DNA from: Patescibacteria group bacterium UBA3533
Lineage (GTDB): Bacteria > Patescibacteriota > Minisyncoccia > Phycocordibacterales > Phycocordibacteraceae
DNA: 57,029 nucleotides
NCBI GenBank assembly: GCA_002376865.1
Contig: DFOU01000006.1
Span: forward strand, 30,763-87,791
Direction of reading: 5' to 3'
Below the pieces are notes generated by a model that was not told the DNA's origin, ran no database searches, and worked only from the letters and a program-made list of their open reading frames with translations. Positions 1,534-57,029 of this stretch are shown here, in pieces (the stretch's first letter is position 1; every line of letters begins with the position of its first letter). Both the position numbers and the translations under genes were made by a program.

Positions 1534-2052
1534 TTACTCAATCTGATATGCGCAATAGCGATTTACGGAACAATTTACAGATCCACAACACGCATAAAAT
1601 CCTCCACCTTTACACTCTGCGTCACTTGTTGGGGTAATTTCATCTGGCATCCAGACGATAAACTTTCCAGGTACTGTTTGCGCACCACAACCCTGAGAAA
1701 CATTTCCATCTACATATACATAACGATCTCCAATTCCTCTGTTTGGACTTGGGTCCTCCGGAACAGCTTGTAGATATGGAGTAAGAGCAGTTATTAAAGC
1801 AGAATCTCCAGAAACAGCACCTCCCCAACAACTTGAAGAATCAAGACACCTCGCTCCCGCCTGTCCTGGATATGACCCTAAAGCATTTTGAGCTAATTCA
1901 AATGCTGTGTGTATGGTTTTTAAATCACTTAACCTCCTAGAATCACGAGCATTTCCTCGCGCAGAGTTAAGTGATGCAAGAACTACAGATGAAAGCATTC
2001 CTATAATTGCTACCACCACAAGAAGCTCAATAAGTGTGAATCCTTTTTTCAT
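1534..2052 (-). CDS. Type IV pilin / T2SS pseudopilin-like protein with a Cys-rich C-terminal domain
   Basis: Class III signal MKKGFTLIELLVVVAIIGMLSSV (prepilin cleavage after G, conserved E+5). The globular C-terminus contains 8 Cys. Confidence 0.85.
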   Translation of the reverse strand: MKKGFTLIELLVVVAIIGMLSSVVLASLNSARGNARDSRRLSDLKTIHTAFELAQNALGSYPGQAGARCLDSSSCWGGAVSGDSALITALTPYLQAVPEDPSPNRGIGDRYVYVDGNVSQGCGAQTVPGKFIVWMPDEITPTSDAECKGGGFYACCGSVNCSVNRYCAYQIE

Positions 2053-20944: not shown

Positions 20945-22357
20945 CTAACGTATCTCGTTTAAAATAGCCTCCTTTAGAATTCCTGGATTTGCTGCACCCT
21001 GAGTCTTCTTCATACCCTGCCCAACCAAGAATTGGAGCGATGCCTCCTTTCCATTTTTATACTCTTCTACAACACTTTTATTCTCAGAAATAATCTCAAG
21101 CACAACTTCCTTAAGCGCTCCTGCATCTTGAACCTGGAAAAGATTTTTCTCCTGTGCAATTTTCTCGGGGTCTCCCCCCTCTTCTAAAAGAATTCTCAAA
21201 ATGTCTTTTGCTCCACGAGAAGAAACTTTGTCTGCACACACCATCTCAATAAGAGAAGCGAATGCTTCGGGAGTTAGAGTTTCAAACTCCACTTTGTCTG
21301 AGTGCTCATTGTAATACCCTGCAATATCAGAAGTTAGATAATTAACCGCTCGCTTAATTTTCTCTGGAGCCTGGAGTTTCTCTATGACAGCGTCAAAGAA
21401 TCTTGCGCGCTCAAGAGAAGCCACAAGATCAGTAACGTCTTCAGGCTTCATGCCAAGATCTTCATAACGCTTTCGCTTCTCGGACGGAAGCTCTGGAAGA
21501 CTCTTCTTCAAAACCTCTTCCTCTAATTCAGGAATTTCTGAAAGCTGAAGCTTTGGAAGGTCTGGCTCTGGGAAGTACCGATACTCTGCAGCACCTTCTT
21601 TAATACGCTGTCCGAATGTCTCCTGCTTTGCCTCATCCCAACCTCGAGTCTGCTGCACTATCTCTCCTCCCTCTTCAAGAACTTTCTCATGTCTCTTTAA
21701 CTCATACGCAATAGCTCGTTCAACAGATCTAAATGAGTTTAGATTTTTAACCTCAACTTTTGTACCAAATTCTTCTGTGTCACTTATTGAAATGTTTGCC
21801 TCAATACGCATCTCCCCTTTTTCAAGATTGGCATCTGAAACACCAAGAGTCCGAAGCAGCAACTGTAGTTCTCGAGCAAATGCGCTCGCCTGTTCTGCAC
21901 TATGAATTACAGGCTCTGTAACAAGCTCCATAAGAGGAATTCCTGCACGATTAAAATCTACAAGAGACTCGTCCCCCTTATGAGTTGAACGAGCAGTATC
22001 CTCCTCAAGATGCACACGAGTAATTTCTACATTATTTAAAGTTCCTCCACTTACAAGTGGAAACTTGTACTGACTAATCTGATACCCCTTTGGAATGTCC
22101 GGATAAAAATAATTCTTCCGATCAAATTCAGTAAAGTCTGCAATCTTTCCACCGAGCGCAACACCAACTTTACACACATGCTCAACTGCCTTTTTATTAA
22201 TAACTGGAAGAGTTCCAGGATGACTCATACAAATAGGACACACGTGAGTATTTGGCTCACGCTCATTTGGATCATTCTTGGAGTCACAGAACATCTTTGT
22301 GTTCGTCTTGAGCTCAGCATGAATCTCTAGTCCTATTGTTGCTTTATACTTCGACAT
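20945..22357 (-). CDS. gatB: Asp-tRNA(Asn)/Glu-tRNA(Gln) amidotransferase subunit B
   Basis: N-terminus YKATIGLEIHAELKT, plus CPICMSHPGTLPV, FDRKNYFYPD and a C-terminal GatB/YqeY tail. Confidence 0.95.
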   Translation of the reverse strand: MSKYKATIGLEIHAELKTNTKMFCDSKNDPNEREPNTHVCPICMSHPGTLPVINKKAVEHVCKVGVALGGKIADFTEFDRKNYFYPDIPKGYQISQYKFPLVSGGTLNNVEITRVHLEEDTARSTHKGDESLVDFNRAGIPLMELVTEPVIHSAEQASAFARELQLLLRTLGVSDANLEKGEMRIEANISISDTEEFGTKVEVKNLNSFRSVERAIAYELKRHEKVLEEGGEIVQQTRGWDEAKQETFGQRIKEGAAEYRYFPEPDLPKLQLSEIPELEEEVLKKSLPELPSEKRKRYEDLGMKPEDVTDLVASLERARFFDAVIEKLQAPEKIKRAVNYLTSDIAGYYNEHSDKVEFETLTPEAFASLIEMVCADKVSSRGAKDILRILLEEGGDPEKIAQEKNLFQVQDAGALKEVVLEIISENKSVVEEYKNGKEASLQFLVGQGMKKTQGAANPGILKEAILNEIR

Positions 22358-23348
22358 CTTTATTTTCTTCTATGGCAGAGCGCCCATCTTCTAGAAGCTT
22401 TGAGAGCTTCTTCCCGAATTCCTTTAACATACCAGGATTTTGGGTAGAAAGCACCCATACTTGCGCCCCCGCCCCCTCAAGCTCTTGTACGTATTTTTCT
22501 TGTGTCTTATGGTCCACAAGATCTGCTTTTGAAAGCACGGCAATCTCGCGCTTCTCTGTAAGGGATGTATCGTACCGAGATAGCTCGTTTCGAATAGTAT
22601 TGTACCGCTCAACAACATGCTCATCTTCTGCAGAAACAAGATGAAATAGCACTCGTGTACGCGAGATATGGCGCAAAAACTTATCTCCAAGCCCCTTGCC
22701 ATCTGCGGCACCTTCGATAAGCCCTGGAATGTCTGCCAATACGTACCCAAAATAACTTCCGAGATGCGGCTCTAAGGTCGTAAATGGGTATGCTCCGACC
22801 TGACTCTTAGCATTGGTTAATGCGTTCAATAGAGACGATTTTCCGGCACTTGGGAGCCCAATAAGACCTATATCTGCTACGAGTTTTAACTCTATATGAA
22901 AATTACCTCTCTCACCTGCTTTCCCTGGTGTTGATTGCTTTGGAGAAACATTCCGAGAGTTCTTAAAACGAGCATTTCCAAATCCCCCACTTCCTCCTTT
23001 TAAAACTTTCACCTTCTCTCCCTCATGCAAAAGCTCTACCACATCATCAGTATCAGTATTGGTAACAACAGAACCAACAGGAACTTTGAGAATTAGATCT
23101 TCTCCATTCTTCCCCTCCATATTTTTCTTTGATCCATCTCCGCCATCTTCTCCTGCAAAACTTTTTGTATGTCGATAGTTTGAAAGATAGGCAAAGTCAC
23201 GAACAGCCTCTACATAGACATCAGCTCCGCGACCTCCGTCACCTCCTGCAGGACCTCCTTTCATTCCTTTATCTGCATGCCAACGAACAACACCGTCTCC
23301 GCCGTTGCCTGCTCGAGCAAAAATACGAACTTCATCTACAAATGCCAT
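22344..23348 (-). CDS. obg: GTPase Obg/CgtA
   Basis: FVDEVRIFARAGNGGDG Gly-rich Obg fold, then G1 GLPSAGKSS, G3 DIPGLIEGA and G4 SKAD. Confidence 0.95.
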   Translation of the reverse strand: MAFVDEVRIFARAGNGGDGVVRWHADKGMKGGPAGGDGGRGADVYVEAVRDFAYLSNYRHTKSFAGEDGGDGSKKNMEGKNGEDLILKVPVGSVVTNTDTDDVVELLHEGEKVKVLKGGSGGFGNARFKNSRNVSPKQSTPGKAGERGNFHIELKLVADIGLIGLPSAGKSSLLNALTNAKSQVGAYPFTTLEPHLGSYFGYVLADIPGLIEGAADGKGLGDKFLRHISRTRVLFHLVSAEDEHVVERYNTIRNELSRYDTSLTEKREIAVLSKADLVDHKTQEKYVQELEGAGAQVWVLSTQNPGMLKEFGKKLSKLLEDGRSAIEENKDVEV

Positions 23349-52623: not shown

Positions 52624-53907
52624 TTAGGAAAAGTTCACAGAGACGTACTCAGGAATCCAAGTGTAGATATCTCCTGCTCCCATTGTAAAGAGAACTGTGT
52701 CCTTGCCGCACTCCTCTACGACACTTTGCAGACCTTCCTTACCATCAATAGTTTCTGCGCACCCACCTGCTTCATTTATTTTTTCAACCAATGCTTTATT
52801 GGTTGTAACACCATCAAACTCTTCTCGTGCTGCAAAAATTGGTGCAACATAAACTTTATCAGCAAGCGCTAGCGACTCTGCAAATCCATCCATAAAGTCA
52901 CGTGTTCGTGAGTAAAGATGAGGATGAAAGGCAACAACAATTTCCTTGCTTGGGAAATGCTTCTTTACTGCAGCGACTGTCTTCTCTATTGCAGTTGGAT
53001 GGTGCGCGTAATCGTCATACACTAGAGACCCTTCGTTTGTCTTCCCTTTAAATTCAAAGCGGCGCCATGTACCTGGGAAACTTTCTAGTCCTTCTTTGTG
53101 AGATTCATTTTCCCCCTCTACTGCAATAGCAGTTGCCATGGCAGTTTTTGCATTTTCAATATTAAATTCTCCTGGAATCAATAGTGTGGGTGCTTCCACT
53201 TCTGCATAATCAATCACCTTACACTTTGCATGCTCTGAGAGTGCCTGCTCATACTTTCCTGCTTTATTTAAAATAAGCGCCCCGTCCTCTGGAAGTTTTT
53301 CTACAAGTTTTTTATATGAACCTACAAGCTGATCAATGTCTTTAAAATAATCTGTGTGGTCAAGCTCTATATTTGTAATTGCAAGAATTGTTGGAGAGAG
53401 ATGTAGGAAATGATCGTTGTACTCACACGCCTCTACAAGCAAATACTCGCTCTCTCCAATCAATACATTTGTATCTGTATCGCGCATGATGCTCCCCACA
53501 ATTACCGTGGGATCAATACTCTTTAGCATTCGAGCAAGCATTGCTGTTGTGGTTGTCTTTCCGTGAGTCCCGGCAATCGCAATGGTTTTATATTTTTTTG
53601 AAACTTCACCGAGCGCTTCAAAGTATGAATACACTGGCACTCCTCTTTTCTTTGCTTCCTCCAAAACCTCTGGGTGATTTGTAAGCCACGCGTCACTGTA
53701 CACAAAAGCATCTACCTCTGGCAGCTTATCTTTCTCTGAGATAACAGAAACACCCTTCTTTTTTAAAGGGTCAAGTGTCCGAGGACTCTCATTATCCTCT
53801 GTTCCTGTTACTTCTTTTCCAAGCCCTACCAAAAGACCTGCAAGTGCTGAAACTCCAGCGCCACCTATACCGATGCAATGAATTTTATTTGCTTCAAGTA
53901 TGTTCAT
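52624..53907 (-). CDS. murC: UDP-N-acetylmuramate--L-alanine ligase
   Basis: IHCIGIGGAGVSALA, GTHGKTTTT, and the central and C-terminal Mur ligase domains. Confidence 0.92.
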   Translation of the reverse strand: MNILEANKIHCIGIGGAGVSALAGLLVGLGKEVTGTEDNESPRTLDPLKKKGVSVISEKDKLPEVDAFVYSDAWLTNHPEVLEEAKKRGVPVYSYFEALGEVSKKYKTIAIAGTHGKTTTTAMLARMLKSIDPTVIVGSIMRDTDTNVLIGESEYLLVEACEYNDHFLHLSPTILAITNIELDHTDYFKDIDQLVGSYKKLVEKLPEDGALILNKAGKYEQALSEHAKCKVIDYAEVEAPTLLIPGEFNIENAKTAMATAIAVEGENESHKEGLESFPGTWRRFEFKGKTNEGSLVYDDYAHHPTAIEKTVAAVKKHFPSKEIVVAFHPHLYSRTRDFMDGFAESLALADKVYVAPIFAAREEFDGVTTNKALVEKINEAGGCAETIDGKEGLQSVVEECGKDTVLFTMGAGDIYTWIPEYVSVNFS

Positions 53908-53910
53908 TTG

Positions 53911-53984
53911 TGCGCGTACTAGGATTCGAACCTAGGACCTTTCGAGTATCAGTCGAATGCTCTAGCCAACTGAGCTATACGCGC
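53911..53984 (-). tRNA. tRNA-Ile (anticodon GAU)
   Basis: Hand-folded cloverleaf. Acceptor GCGCGTA/TACGCGC; D stem GCTC/GAGC; anticodon stem TTCGA/TCGAA with loop CTGATAC; T arm CTAGG-TTCGAAT-CCTAG; discriminator A. CCA is not encoded. The 3' end lies 3 nt before the murC ATG. Confidence 0.93.
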
Positions 53985-54272: not shown

Positions 54273-54297
54273 CTCGCCTCACACTATGTGAGGCGAG
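54273..54297 (+). terminator. 11-bp-stem hairpin whose 3-nt loop is the murD stop codon; T-rich tail on the plus strand only
   Basis: CTCGCCTCACA-cta-TGTGAGGCGAG followed by CTTCTTTTAT on the plus strand. On the minus strand it is followed by GATTCAATG. Confidence 0.55.
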
Positions 54298-55555
54298 CTT
54301 CTTTTATACATGCAAGAAATTGATCATTTCGATCATACTCATTTTTGAACATTCCAAATGATGCAAACCCCGGACTAAATAGAATTACATCTCCCTCCTC
54401 TGCAATGCCAAACGCTTCAGTAACAGCACTTTGTATAGAATCGTGCTGTTTTTCATCTCTCTCCAACTTTTCTGTACCAGAACCTGCAAGCAATATCACA
54501 TGATCTGCAGAGTCTAGGACCTCATTAAATCCATCAAGTGGAAGCTCTTTATCTGCCCCTCCTGTAATTACAATTATCTTCCCCGCTCCCTTTAGTGCAG
54601 CAATACCTGCTGCGGTTGCTGCTGGAGTTGTTGAGGTTGAGTCATTAAAAATCTGAACACCATTTACTTTTCCAATATCTTCTAACCTTCCCTCAATTCC
54701 TTTGAAGGACATGAATGCTTCTTTTATTTGCTCATCAGTAAGTCCATATGTTTTTAGGACATGATATGCACACGCTACGTTCTTTTCATTGTGCTCCCCA
54801 ATTAAATTTGGGTGCCACGATGGATCAACATCTCCTCTCCTGGCAACAATATAGTCATCCCTATACTCTTTTATTTTCTCCTCCATCTCTTCTCCAATGA
54901 TAAGCACATCACCGTCTTTTTGATATAAGAAAATATTAGCCTTATCCTTAAAATAAAGGCTCATATCACCCTTATAGTAGTTAAGGTGATCTTCCATAAA
55001 GTTTATAAATACAGCTATATTTGGACTTATTTTTTTATCTCCAAATCCTTGTAGCTGCCAACTATCAAGCTCAAATACAGCAATATCTTTCCCTTCTGTT
55101 TGATCAAGAAGCTCGAGATTTGAAACTCCTCGTATATTTCCTCCTAAAAGAGAGTTTTCAAGAGCGTGATGAATAAGGTGCGTAACTGTTGTTTTCCCGC
55201 GCGTACCTGTGATTCCAATCATTTTGAGATTACTCAACTCATGAAAAAGCGCTCCACTCATTACAGCCTCTACCCCATGCTCTCTCGCATGATTTATATA
55301 TTTATTATCTAAAGGAACACCGTTTCCTTTAAGAACCATGTCTTTGTTTTCAAAATCTTCCAGACGGTGCTCTCCTAGGACATACGTAATATTTGAAAAT
55401 TCTTTGAGCTGATCAAGAGATGATCTCAACTCTTCTTCTGTCTTTAGATCAGTTACAAGTAAGTCAGCTCCCTGCTGCGCAAGGTACTTTGTATCCCCCA
55501 CGCCGCGACCAAGAAGTCCTAGACCCATAACTGTTATTTTCTTTCCTACAAACAT
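54284..55555 (-). CDS. murD: UDP-N-acetylmuramoylalanine--D-glutamate ligase
   Basis: VMGLGLLGRG, GITGTRGKTT and the Mur ligase central and C-terminal domains. Confidence 0.9.
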   Translation of the reverse strand: MFVGKKITVMGLGLLGRGVGDTKYLAQQGADLLVTDLKTEEELRSSLDQLKEFSNITYVLGEHRLEDFENKDMVLKGNGVPLDNKYINHAREHGVEAVMSGALFHELSNLKMIGITGTRGKTTVTHLIHHALENSLLGGNIRGVSNLELLDQTEGKDIAVFELDSWQLQGFGDKKISPNIAVFINFMEDHLNYYKGDMSLYFKDKANIFLYQKDGDVLIIGEEMEEKIKEYRDDYIVARRGDVDPSWHPNLIGEHNEKNVACAYHVLKTYGLTDEQIKEAFMSFKGIEGRLEDIGKVNGVQIFNDSTSTTPAATAAGIAALKGAGKIIVITGGADKELPLDGFNEVLDSADHVILLAGSGTEKLERDEKQHDSIQSAVTEAFGIAEEGDVILFSPGFASFGMFKNEYDRNDQFLACIKEARLT

Positions 55556-55804
55556 ATTTGCTTAAGCATACCCTAATCATTGACGGAGTAAACAAAGAGA
55601 GGTAGCTTGAACATATACGATCTTTATAAAGCTGGAGGCACTATTGTGCAATTCTGAAAAGCGAAATCAACATTATCGGGCAATCCCCTCACGAAGTCAG
55701 GTTAGTGACAAAACACCGCCTGGCAACGTATACAAGCCTGGCAAGTTGAAACGGATTTCAGGAAAGGATCCTGCACAAACTCTTCGCGAGTCTTAAATAA
55801 ACAA

Positions 55805-55827
55805 AGCCCGAGCATTCTGCTCGGGCT
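55805..55827 (-). terminator. Hairpin terminator after the 40-aa ORF
   Basis: AGCCCGAGCA-ttc-TGCTCGGGCT. The minus strand continues TTGTTTATTT. Confidence 0.6.
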
Positions 55828-55847
55828 CTCTGTTTATGGGGCCTTGG

Positions 55848-55970: not shown

Positions 55971-56079
55971 TTCAATTACTTCCGGTGATTCAACCACCGG
56001 TACATACAACTGATTCAAAGAAACCTCCCTTACTTCCTATATTTATTATACCACGCATAAATATTTTATGTCAATATAC

Positions 56080-56107
56080 AAAAAACACCCCTGTTGAGGT
56101 GTTTTTT
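56080..56107 (-). terminator. Bidirectional-looking terminator about 185 nt downstream of the 16S 3' end
   Basis: AAAAAACACC-cctgttga-GGTGTTTTTT. Confidence 0.65.
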
Positions 56108-56289
56108 GCAATACTAGAGTACGAAAATGATATATTCTCTTTCGTTCCGCCTATTCACCATTATGTTGCGAATTCCACAACACAATGTCCCATTTCTGAC
56201 TATATGGGGAGCCAAGCACCATTTAAGGATGTGTGCTATCTCCTCACAATAAATTGTGATCGCCATAACCTCGTACTATGTACGAGAAT

Positions 56290-57029
56290 CCACTTGGAAT
56301 TGATCCACGACCAGCTTCCGCTAGCCGTGCCTTGTTACGACTTAGTCCTTGTCATTGAATTTGCCTTAGGTCCAGATTAACTGGAACGTCGGGCACCCCC
56401 AACTCCCTTGACTTGACGGGCGGTGAGTACAAGACTTGAGAACGTATTCACCGTGGTGTTGCTGACCCACGATTACTAGCGATTCCGACTTCATGAGGTC
56501 GAGTTTCAGACCTCAATCCGGATTGAGATTGGTTTTAATAGATTTGCTCCGGGTTACCCCATTGCGTCTCATTGTACCAACCATTGTATCACGCGTGCAG
56601 CCCAGGGTATCAAGGGACATGCTGACCTGGCGTCATCCCCACCTTCCTCTCCCGTGAGGGAGCAGTCTCGCCTGACACTTATAACAGGCAACGAGGGTTG
56701 CGTTCGTTACCCCACTTAAGGGAACAGTTCAAACCACGAACTGACGACGGCCATGCATCACCTGTCCAGCACCCTCGAAGGCTATTCTAGTTTCTTAGAA
56801 TATGCAGCTGGATTTCTAACCCTGGTAAGGTTCTTCGCTTAGCGACGAATTAAGCCGCATGATCCACCGCTTGTGCAAGTCCCCGTCTATTCCTTTGAGT
56901 TTTAAGCTTGCGCTCGTACTACCCAGGCGGCTCGCTTACCGCGTTAGCTTAGCCTCCGAGAGGGTCGATACTCCCGAAAGCGAGCGAGCAGCGTTTAGGG
57001 CCAGGACTACCGGGGTATCTAATCCCGTT
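56290..57029 (-). rRNA. rrs: 16S rRNA gene, 3' portion (about E. coli position 785 to the 3' end), truncated by the window edge
   Basis: The plus strand carries the reverse complements of universal sites: GGACTACCGGGGTATCTAATCC (806R), GACGGGCGGTGAGTAC (1392 region, with one substitution) and CCTTGTTACGACTT (1492R). Helix 45 (CACGGCTAGC-GGAA-GCTGGTCGTG) is followed by GGATCA. The exact 3' end is uncertain. Confidence 0.93.

Follow-up and report, generated by a model that had tools for sequence, protein, structure and literature searches.

In textbook bacterial initiation, the start codon is chosen by pairing between the Shine-Dalgarno (SD) sequence of the mRNA and the anti-SD at the 3' end of 16S rRNA. 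To our knowledge, the anti-SD itself is seldom lost. The stretch of DNA analyzed here (the window, 57,029 nucleotides of a Patescibacteria group bacterium) ends in a 16S rRNA gene for which a first-pass annotation, made from the letters alone, had claimed a tail without CCUCC, together with a lack of SD sequences in front of most genes. Has this bacterium really lost its anti-SD, and how would its start sites then be chosen? The 16S rRNA gene occupies the window's last 737 bases and belongs to contig C13 of a 584-kb, 14-contig, 97%-complete genome (G000). Its 5' part is missing, being cut off by the contig end. The RNA features all lie on the minus strand.

56293 to 57029, minus strand: 3' half of the 16S rRNA gene, model positions 771 to 1533 (Rfam RF00177, 671.9 bits)
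56306 to 56329, minus strand: helix 45 (h45), made of CACGGCUAGC, a GGAA loop, and GCUGGUCGUG (covariance-model alignment)
56293 to 56306, minus strand: 3' tail GGAUCAAUUCCAAG, with AUUCC in place of the usual CCUCC of the anti-SD (covariance-model alignment)

The gene belongs to the bacterial small-subunit (SSU) rRNA family, scoring 671.9 bits against a cut-off of 50, and its 3' end is complete. When the Rfam SSU covariance model was re-run on the 3' region alone, its last position (1533) fell on 56293, with posterior '*' throughout and zero insertions, and the tail GGAUCAAUUCCAAG was aligned without interruption to the consensus GAUCACCUCCUUU (model positions 1520 to 1533). A canonical anti-SD, that is, CCUCC in the single-stranded tail after h45 (GAUCACCUCC), was not found there; the tail reads GAUCAAUUCCAAG. 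Thus, the missing CCUCC was confirmed to the base by alignment and motif search, and the h45 that had been described as well formed was located at 56306 to 56329. The claim that CCUCC is lacking between 56100 and 56300 was borne out over an even wider interval, since the motif search found no GGAGG on the plus strand throughout 56000 to 56340.

A canonical anti-SD could have been overlooked if it lay beyond an insertion or in an unassembled second 16S gene, or if the tail were an artifact of assembly or binning. The gene does stand half assembled at a contig end, passages of PMC9297842 describe 16S genes of the candidate phyla radiation (CPR) as frequently bearing insertions, and the trailer contains CAUCCUUAAA plus one CUCC. 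However, the contig cut hits the 5' end of the gene and leaves the tail untouched. The covariance-model alignment, which the first-pass annotation had named as a check, reached the model end without an insertion and revealed no canonical tail further downstream, and CCUCC was absent from the ~200-nt trailer up to a terminator-like hairpin (motif search). The trailer segment CAUCCUUAAA was considered as a displaced anti-SD and rejected: it varies among relatives (UCCUU, UCUCU, UCCCU, and UCCAG) together with a complementary upstream arm, as judged by eye. Because it is variable and covaries with that arm, the segment is one side of a hairpin rather than a conserved anti-SD. Only one 16S copy is present in the 97%-complete assembly, the same tail occurs in G003, a congeneric genome that is complete in one contig and has a single 16S match, and tails without CCUCC are found in at least 119 other species. 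On this evidence, an overlooked anti-SD is highly improbable. The loss of the anti-SD from the 16S rRNA of G000 is real and is neither chance nor artifact.

Comparison of related 16S 3' ends, a further check that had been proposed, demonstrated that the CCUCC-less tail is a trait of the lineage. All anchor-bearing 16S loci of the same genus, family, and order lacked CCUCC in the tail (for example, GGAUCAAUUCCAAG, GGAACAAUUCCAUG, GGAACAUAUCCAAU, and GGAAUCAUUCAAUU), and genomes of the same genus as G000 had an identical or near-identical tail. In a scan of one genome per prokaryote species, the h45 variant was present in at least 119 further species; among the matches listed, 119 of 119 were free of CCUCC in the 20 nt past h45. 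The titles of these listed records include Parcubacteria group, Candidatus Paceibacteria/Paceibacterota, and Nomura-, Kaiser-, Taylor-, Zambryski-, Lloyd-, and Staskawiczbacteria. The exact h45 variant and the similar tails in records so titled indicate that G000 comes from an ultra-small member of the Paceibacteria (Parcubacteria, CPR). In an even sample of the phylum, the anchor was followed by CCTCC at the right distance in 213 of 401 genomes, compared with 0 of 8 genomes of the same order and 5 of 16 other genomes of the same class. Judged from these tails, the loss is old and clade-wide, yet not common to the whole class.

Loss of the anti-SD in this lineage is already known and was published by Tsurumaki, Saito, Tomita, and Kanai in 2022 (RNA 28:1041; PMC9297842), and the novelty of the central fact is therefore low. 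In the pertinent passages of that paper, the anti-SD motif was detected in 48% of Parcubacteria, the lineages without it overlapped the group lacking uL1, the link to uL1 was called unclear, and SD helices were thought not to form in anti-SD-less lineages. Like the Parcubacteria subgroup described in those passages, G000 has neither CCUCCU at the 16S 3' end nor uL1: uL1 (PF00687) was not found in G000 (97% complete) or in the complete G003, and the control search found it in 14 of 14 genomes. Era, which binds GAUCACCUCC (PMC10582724) and is largely missing from Paceibacteria (PMC12641178), was not found in G000 above the family cut-off in a profile search. The idea that loss of Era or uL1 is strictly coupled to that of the anti-SD was considered and dropped, because two genomes of the same class (G279 and G163) have neither uL1 nor Era by profile search and yet keep the canonical GGAUCACCUCC in their tails; in this respect, our observations differ from the subgroup as those passages describe it. 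What is given below on SD use across the genome, on leaderless starts, and on covariation in the tail hairpin goes beyond those passages.

For SD-dependent initiation, enrichment of GGAGG-type motifs or of tail-complementary duplexes is expected 5 to 12 nt upstream of most starts. The gene set comprised 599 genes defined by our own longest-ORF rule (89% coding, code 11) rather than by a trained gene finder, and SD use was measured as a 4-mer core in -18 to -4 and as duplex energy, with shifted positions as controls. No such enrichment was found in G000, where an SD core preceded 15.6% of the 599 genes versus 16.0% at control positions; the corresponding values were 13.1% and 15.3% in G003, and 44% and 5% in Escherichia coli K-12 run through the same pipeline (50 kb, 61 genes only). 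Upstream G content remained flat at ~0.2 from -20 to -1 in G000, whereas it climbed to 0.43 in E. coli. At the SD position, the mean duplex energy did not drop, whether it was computed against the canonical or the observed tail. Thus, the genome-wide scan that the first-pass annotation had suggested, with energies computed against both CCUCC and the observed tail, gave no normal GGAGG enrichment, and the claim that most genes lack an SD sequence holds for the genome at large; a small class of genes with textbook AGGAG sites had gone unseen. These data support the view that start sites in G000 would not be picked by SD:anti-SD pairing.

Several variants of the measurement were set aside. The strict 5-mer measure (AGGAG or GGAGG) was too insensitive, giving only 8% in E. 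coli, and was replaced by the 4-mer core and duplex-energy thresholds. A relative that keeps ACCUCC (G275) was dropped as positive control because it showed no SD use either, and the 50 kb of E. coli K-12 were substituted. SD sequences hidden at downstream alternative starts were also considered and rejected, with 43 observed versus 63 expected by chance.

Within the window, 4 of the 43 genes of at least 90 aa had a 4-mer SD core in -18 to -4, and 1 had AGGAG or GGAGG. Four start contexts had been quoted as examples of SD-less starts; all exist as written, and their products were confirmed by Pfam.

22344 to 23348, minus strand: obg, SD-less start (Pfam GTP1_OBG, 1.7e-43)
54284 to 55555, minus strand: murD-like ligase, SD-less start with TATGCT at -15 (Pfam and upstream sequence)
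52624 to 53907, minus strand: murC-like ligase, ATG 3 nt past the 3' end of a tRNA at 53911 to 53984 (Pfam, Rfam)
1534 to 2052, minus strand: type IV pilin-like gene, SD-less start with TACTCT at -15 (Pfam N_methyl)

A promoter signal lies where the SD sequence would be expected. TANNNT peaked at -15 to -12 in 157 of the 599 genes of G000, and in 10 genes the exact TATAAT stood at -14, being nearly absent from other positions. When the sites were aligned on the box, an extended -10 TG emerged (T 0.52 and G 0.50 at box positions -3/-2), giving the form TGnTAnnnT at 12 to 15 nt upstream of ATG; about a quarter of the genes have such a start-proximal box. The extended TG was found in 36% of start-proximal boxes versus 4.5% of intragenic TANNNT, and ATG was the start codon of 92% of boxed genes versus 66% of the remaining genes. 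The same -10-box peak was obtained in G003. G000 thus displays both features expected of leaderless genes, a -10 element at a fixed short distance and a strong preference for AUG. With the -10 hexamer ending 7 to 10 nt before ATG, transcription would start at or within a few nucleotides of the start codon. It is well supported by box position that the first genes of transcription units would be largely leaderless, and the ATG preference fits. Together with the null SD enrichment, these boxes support the SD-independent initiation that had been proposed for this genome.

Other components may contribute. Among co-directional gene pairs, 213 of 409 overlap or lie no more than 20 nt apart, and this tight packing makes reinitiation possible. 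A 368-aa ORF in which three or more S1 domains were recognized represents bS1, and bS21, for which the match in G000 was borderline, is probably present. The tRNA directly upstream of murC (window 53907 to 53984, minus strand; Rfam tRNA, 76 bits) is an observation of a related kind: tRNA 3' processing alone would give a near-leaderless murC mRNA, resembling the tRNA punctuation of mitochondria.

The first-pass annotation had also raised an altered pairing code, in which the new AUUCC tail would pair with a GGAAU-type upstream motif and pairing-based initiation would continue. Judged from the sequence, pairing of UUCC with GGAA is possible in principle, as is pairing with GGAG if one G-U wobble is allowed. 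However, GGAAT, TGGAA, and TTGGA did not peak at any position in front of starts, and GGAA reached 6 at -10 against a background of 2 to 3. Duplexes with the genome's own tail at dG <= -5 were in fact depleted at starts (7.6% versus 14.8%, or ~15%) in G000 and G003. Because own-tail pairing is rarer upstream of starts than in the control, the altered code was rejected. In addition, the tail varies widely between related genera (UUCC, UUCA, CUCA, GUCA, and AU-only), and a pairing code shared among them is implausible since the tail letters differ freely. We therefore give next to no credence to an altered code, and SD-independent initiation is preferred.

At the former anti-SD position, the tail is predicted to fold with the first bases of the trailer.

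56287 to 56301, minus strand: mini-hairpin AAUUC-CAAGU-GGAUU, with the former anti-SD position paired with the first trailer bases (MFE fold)
56108 to 56292, minus strand: 16S trailer, highly structured and CCUCC-free (fold z-score of -7.9 for 56075 to 56345)
56080 to 56107, minus strand: terminator-like hairpin of 15 pairs including A/U flanks, with a U-run and no 23S rRNA gene after it (MFE fold)

The arms of the mini-hairpin covary. Among 132 distinct tails, 57 had UCA combined with UGA and 39 had UCC combined with GGA, cross combinations being absent, and the outer pair alternated between U-A, C-G, and G-C. These figures are a direct count of arm combinations; the MAFFT alignment of the 132 tails was ungapped, and unequal loops shifted the register of the 3' arm. 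Since the tails share ancestry, the counts overstate independence. A stem of at least 4 bp was found in 81% of tails versus 48% of shuffled tails, figures that concern a short hairpin in phylogenetically related sequences. In Patescibacteria that keep the anti-SD, a homologous CUCC-UUUCUA-GGAG hairpin was present in 9 of 11 tails. In our reading, the precursor 3'-end hairpin may have stayed under selection as the need for CCUCC vanished.

A bolder proposal starts from the forms that this hairpin takes, which are CUCC..GGAG in the anti-SD-keeping relatives and UUCC..GGAA, UUCA..UGAA, CUCA..UGAG, and GUCA..UGAC in the anti-SD-less clade. The former anti-SD arm might be retained in mature 16S rRNA as part of a short extra 3' helix, which would close the mRNA-docking platform and so favor 70S/leaderless initiation, or would replace an Era-dependent checkpoint of 3'-end maturation; SD-led cassettes would in addition persist through an anti-SD-independent role of AGGAGG. 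We regard this combination as doubtful.

Beyond the mini-hairpin, the trailer at 56108 to 56292 matched no Rfam family; it may serve as a stem in pre-rRNA processing or represent an unknown RNA element. In the trailers of eight relatives (L003, L006, L010, L012, L014, L017, L023, and L029), a conserved GGCGAUC/GUCGAUC box is followed by hairpins, and trailer hairpin arms in relatives covary by eye (AGGA..UCCU, GAGAGA..UCUCU, and GGGGA..UCCCU). A simple terminator scan did not flag the hairpin at 56080 to 56107, which is shown by the MFE fold. Since the trailer ends in this long hairpin with a U-run, the 16S rRNA gene forms a stand-alone transcription unit.

The order of events was approached through genomes that keep the anti-SD. 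In G275, an SD core preceded 7.3% of genes versus 11% in the control, over 400 kb. In G279, of the same class as G000, the values were 12.1% and 9.3% over 191 kb, with a small GGAG peak only. Start-proximal -10-like boxes were present in both. Because these two genomes, one of them sampled over only 191 kb, keep CCUCC and show no SD enrichment, they suggest that SD disuse preceded anti-SD loss.

Against this general absence, a minority of genes in G000 carry textbook SD sites. GGAG peaked sharply at -11/-10 (13 + 19 = 32 genes versus ~6 expected, or ~3 per position), AGGA peaked at -12/-11, and AGGAG or GGAGG at the proper spacing preceded 42 of 599 genes versus ~18 at control positions. The SD-led genes were short (median of 152 aa versus 230 aa), slightly GC-richer (45.5% versus 41.9%), and mostly first in their units (23 of 215 first-like genes versus 8 of 225 internal ones). 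They were also clustered, with 11 of the 42 lying at 15 to 61 kb of contig C3 in G000. A homolog in G003 was found for 11 of the 42 SD-led genes versus 417 of the 557 others (Fisher p = 3e-10), and G003 itself had no excess of AGGAG or GGAGG (17 of 595 versus 15.9 in the control).

One of these few SD-led units of an anti-SD-less host lies in the window directly after the terminator-like hairpin of the 16S rRNA gene.

56016 to 56074, minus strand: start of an SD-led cassette, a perfect TTGACA-18-TATAAT promoter followed by GGGAGG 6 nt before the TTG of a small ORF (promoter scan, 12/12 with TG)
55803 to 55829, minus strand: 12-bp terminator-like hairpin closing the cassette

Outside the window, the C3 region at ~15 to 61 kb includes 7 SD-led genes within 37 to 48 kb. 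Because the SD-led ORFs of this region are mostly short and hypothetical and have no homolog in the sister genome G003, the region is probably an accessory or mobile island. The simplest reading of textbook SD sequences in an anti-SD-less host is recent acquisition.

Alternatively, the sharp GGAG and AGGA peaks could reflect a weak residual SD function used by a minority of genes, in which the tail UUCC would pair with GGAG through G-C, G-C, A-U, and G-U. In favor of this, a GAGGAGG motif is kept upstream of an MreB-like core gene in both G000 and G003. However, GGAA would pair at least as well and is not enriched, the peak is near-absent in G003 despite the same tail (17/595 versus 15.9), and the SD-led genes are overwhelmingly strain-specific. 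Moreover, the tails of many sister lineages are UUCA or AU-only and are unable to pair with GGAG. A residual SD function is quite unlikely, and accessory acquisition is preferred for these sites. The MreB-like gene (G000 C8:14637 to 15698; G003 ortholog h167, 88% protein identity) has GAAAGAGGAGGA 2 to 3 nt upstream of ATG in both genomes; this motif may simply lie inside the preceding coding sequence.

Taken together, we consider it probable, at roughly 85%, that this Paceibacteria genome has lost its 16S anti-SD as a lineage-wide trait, that starts are SD-free and largely leaderless, that SD disuse came before the loss, that the tail hairpin was kept, and that the SD sites that exist are accessory. 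For genes first in their units, an extended -10 promoter 12 to 15 nt before AUG would yield an mRNA starting at or within a few nucleotides of the start codon. Genes further downstream could be reached by termination-reinitiation, which tight packing would permit, and a bS1 of 3 to 4 domains would serve A/U-rich leaders. SD use was probably marginal already before the loss, leaving the CCUCC letters free to drift to UUCC or UUCA. The small hairpin formed with the first trailer bases would have stayed under selection, probably as a feature of pre-rRNA 3' processing, and the few textbook AGGAG sites would be mostly strain-specific accessory cassettes outside the core initiation system.

Other systems show parts of this pattern. 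Bacteroidota reportedly keep the anti-SD in a sequestered form and rarely use SD sequences. G000 resembles them in that most genes lack an SD, upstream regions are A-rich, and SD genes are few; the difference is that CCUCC is retained there, whereas in G000 the sequence itself is gone. G275 and G279, with the anti-SD kept and no SD enrichment, are nearer to the Bacteroidota state than G000 is. In Actinobacteria and Deinococcus-Thermus, leaderless genes are abundant and a short, fixed spacing separates the -10 box from the AUG that follows. This short spacing is shared by G000; however, those taxa retain the anti-SD and use SD sequences for leadered genes. Mammalian mitochondrial mRNAs are leaderless and are punctuated by tRNAs. 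The mammalian mitochondrial ribosome, whose SSU rRNA has no anti-SD (PMC10582724), is similar to that of G000 in this lack and in its (near-)leaderless mRNAs, of which murC, 3 nt past a tRNA, would be an example here. In contrast, the genome of G000 is bacterial and free, its extended -10 promoters are of the sigma-70 type, bS1 is present, and bS21 probably is. In addition, mammalian mitochondria keep ERAL1, whereas no Era was detected in G000.

The window offers a clear case, from a clade that is large and uncultured, of an rRNA change alongside genome-wide SD absence and promoter-adjacent, apparently leaderless starts. In practice, gene finders that reward ribosome-binding-site motifs will mis-score starts in such genomes. 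The additions to earlier work are modest: SD disuse among anti-SD-keeping relatives, a tail hairpin whose arms covary and which appears to have outlasted the loss, and SD-led accessory cassettes in a host unable to read them by pairing.

The 16S rRNA gene carries one further change, for which the first-pass annotation had noted a substitution in the 1392-region beside its description of the tail.

56415 to 56430, minus strand: 1392-region GUACUCACCGCCCGUC, with U at E. coli position 1396 (covariance-model alignment)

The change of A1396 to U is real, and it has no bearing on the tail. U1396 pairs with an A at position 921 (56883 to 56896), and the covariance model flagged no mispair. Because the change of U921 to A compensates that of A1396 to U, h28 keeps its closing pair in flipped form, as A-U instead of U-A. 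The A-U flip was found in 49 of the 50 Patescibacteria loci carrying both regions, including 3 that keep the anti-SD. Since it is common to relatives with an intact anti-SD, the 1392 change is a phylum-level signature unrelated to the tail. In practice, position 1396 is a mismatch for "universal" primers and probes of the 1392 type.
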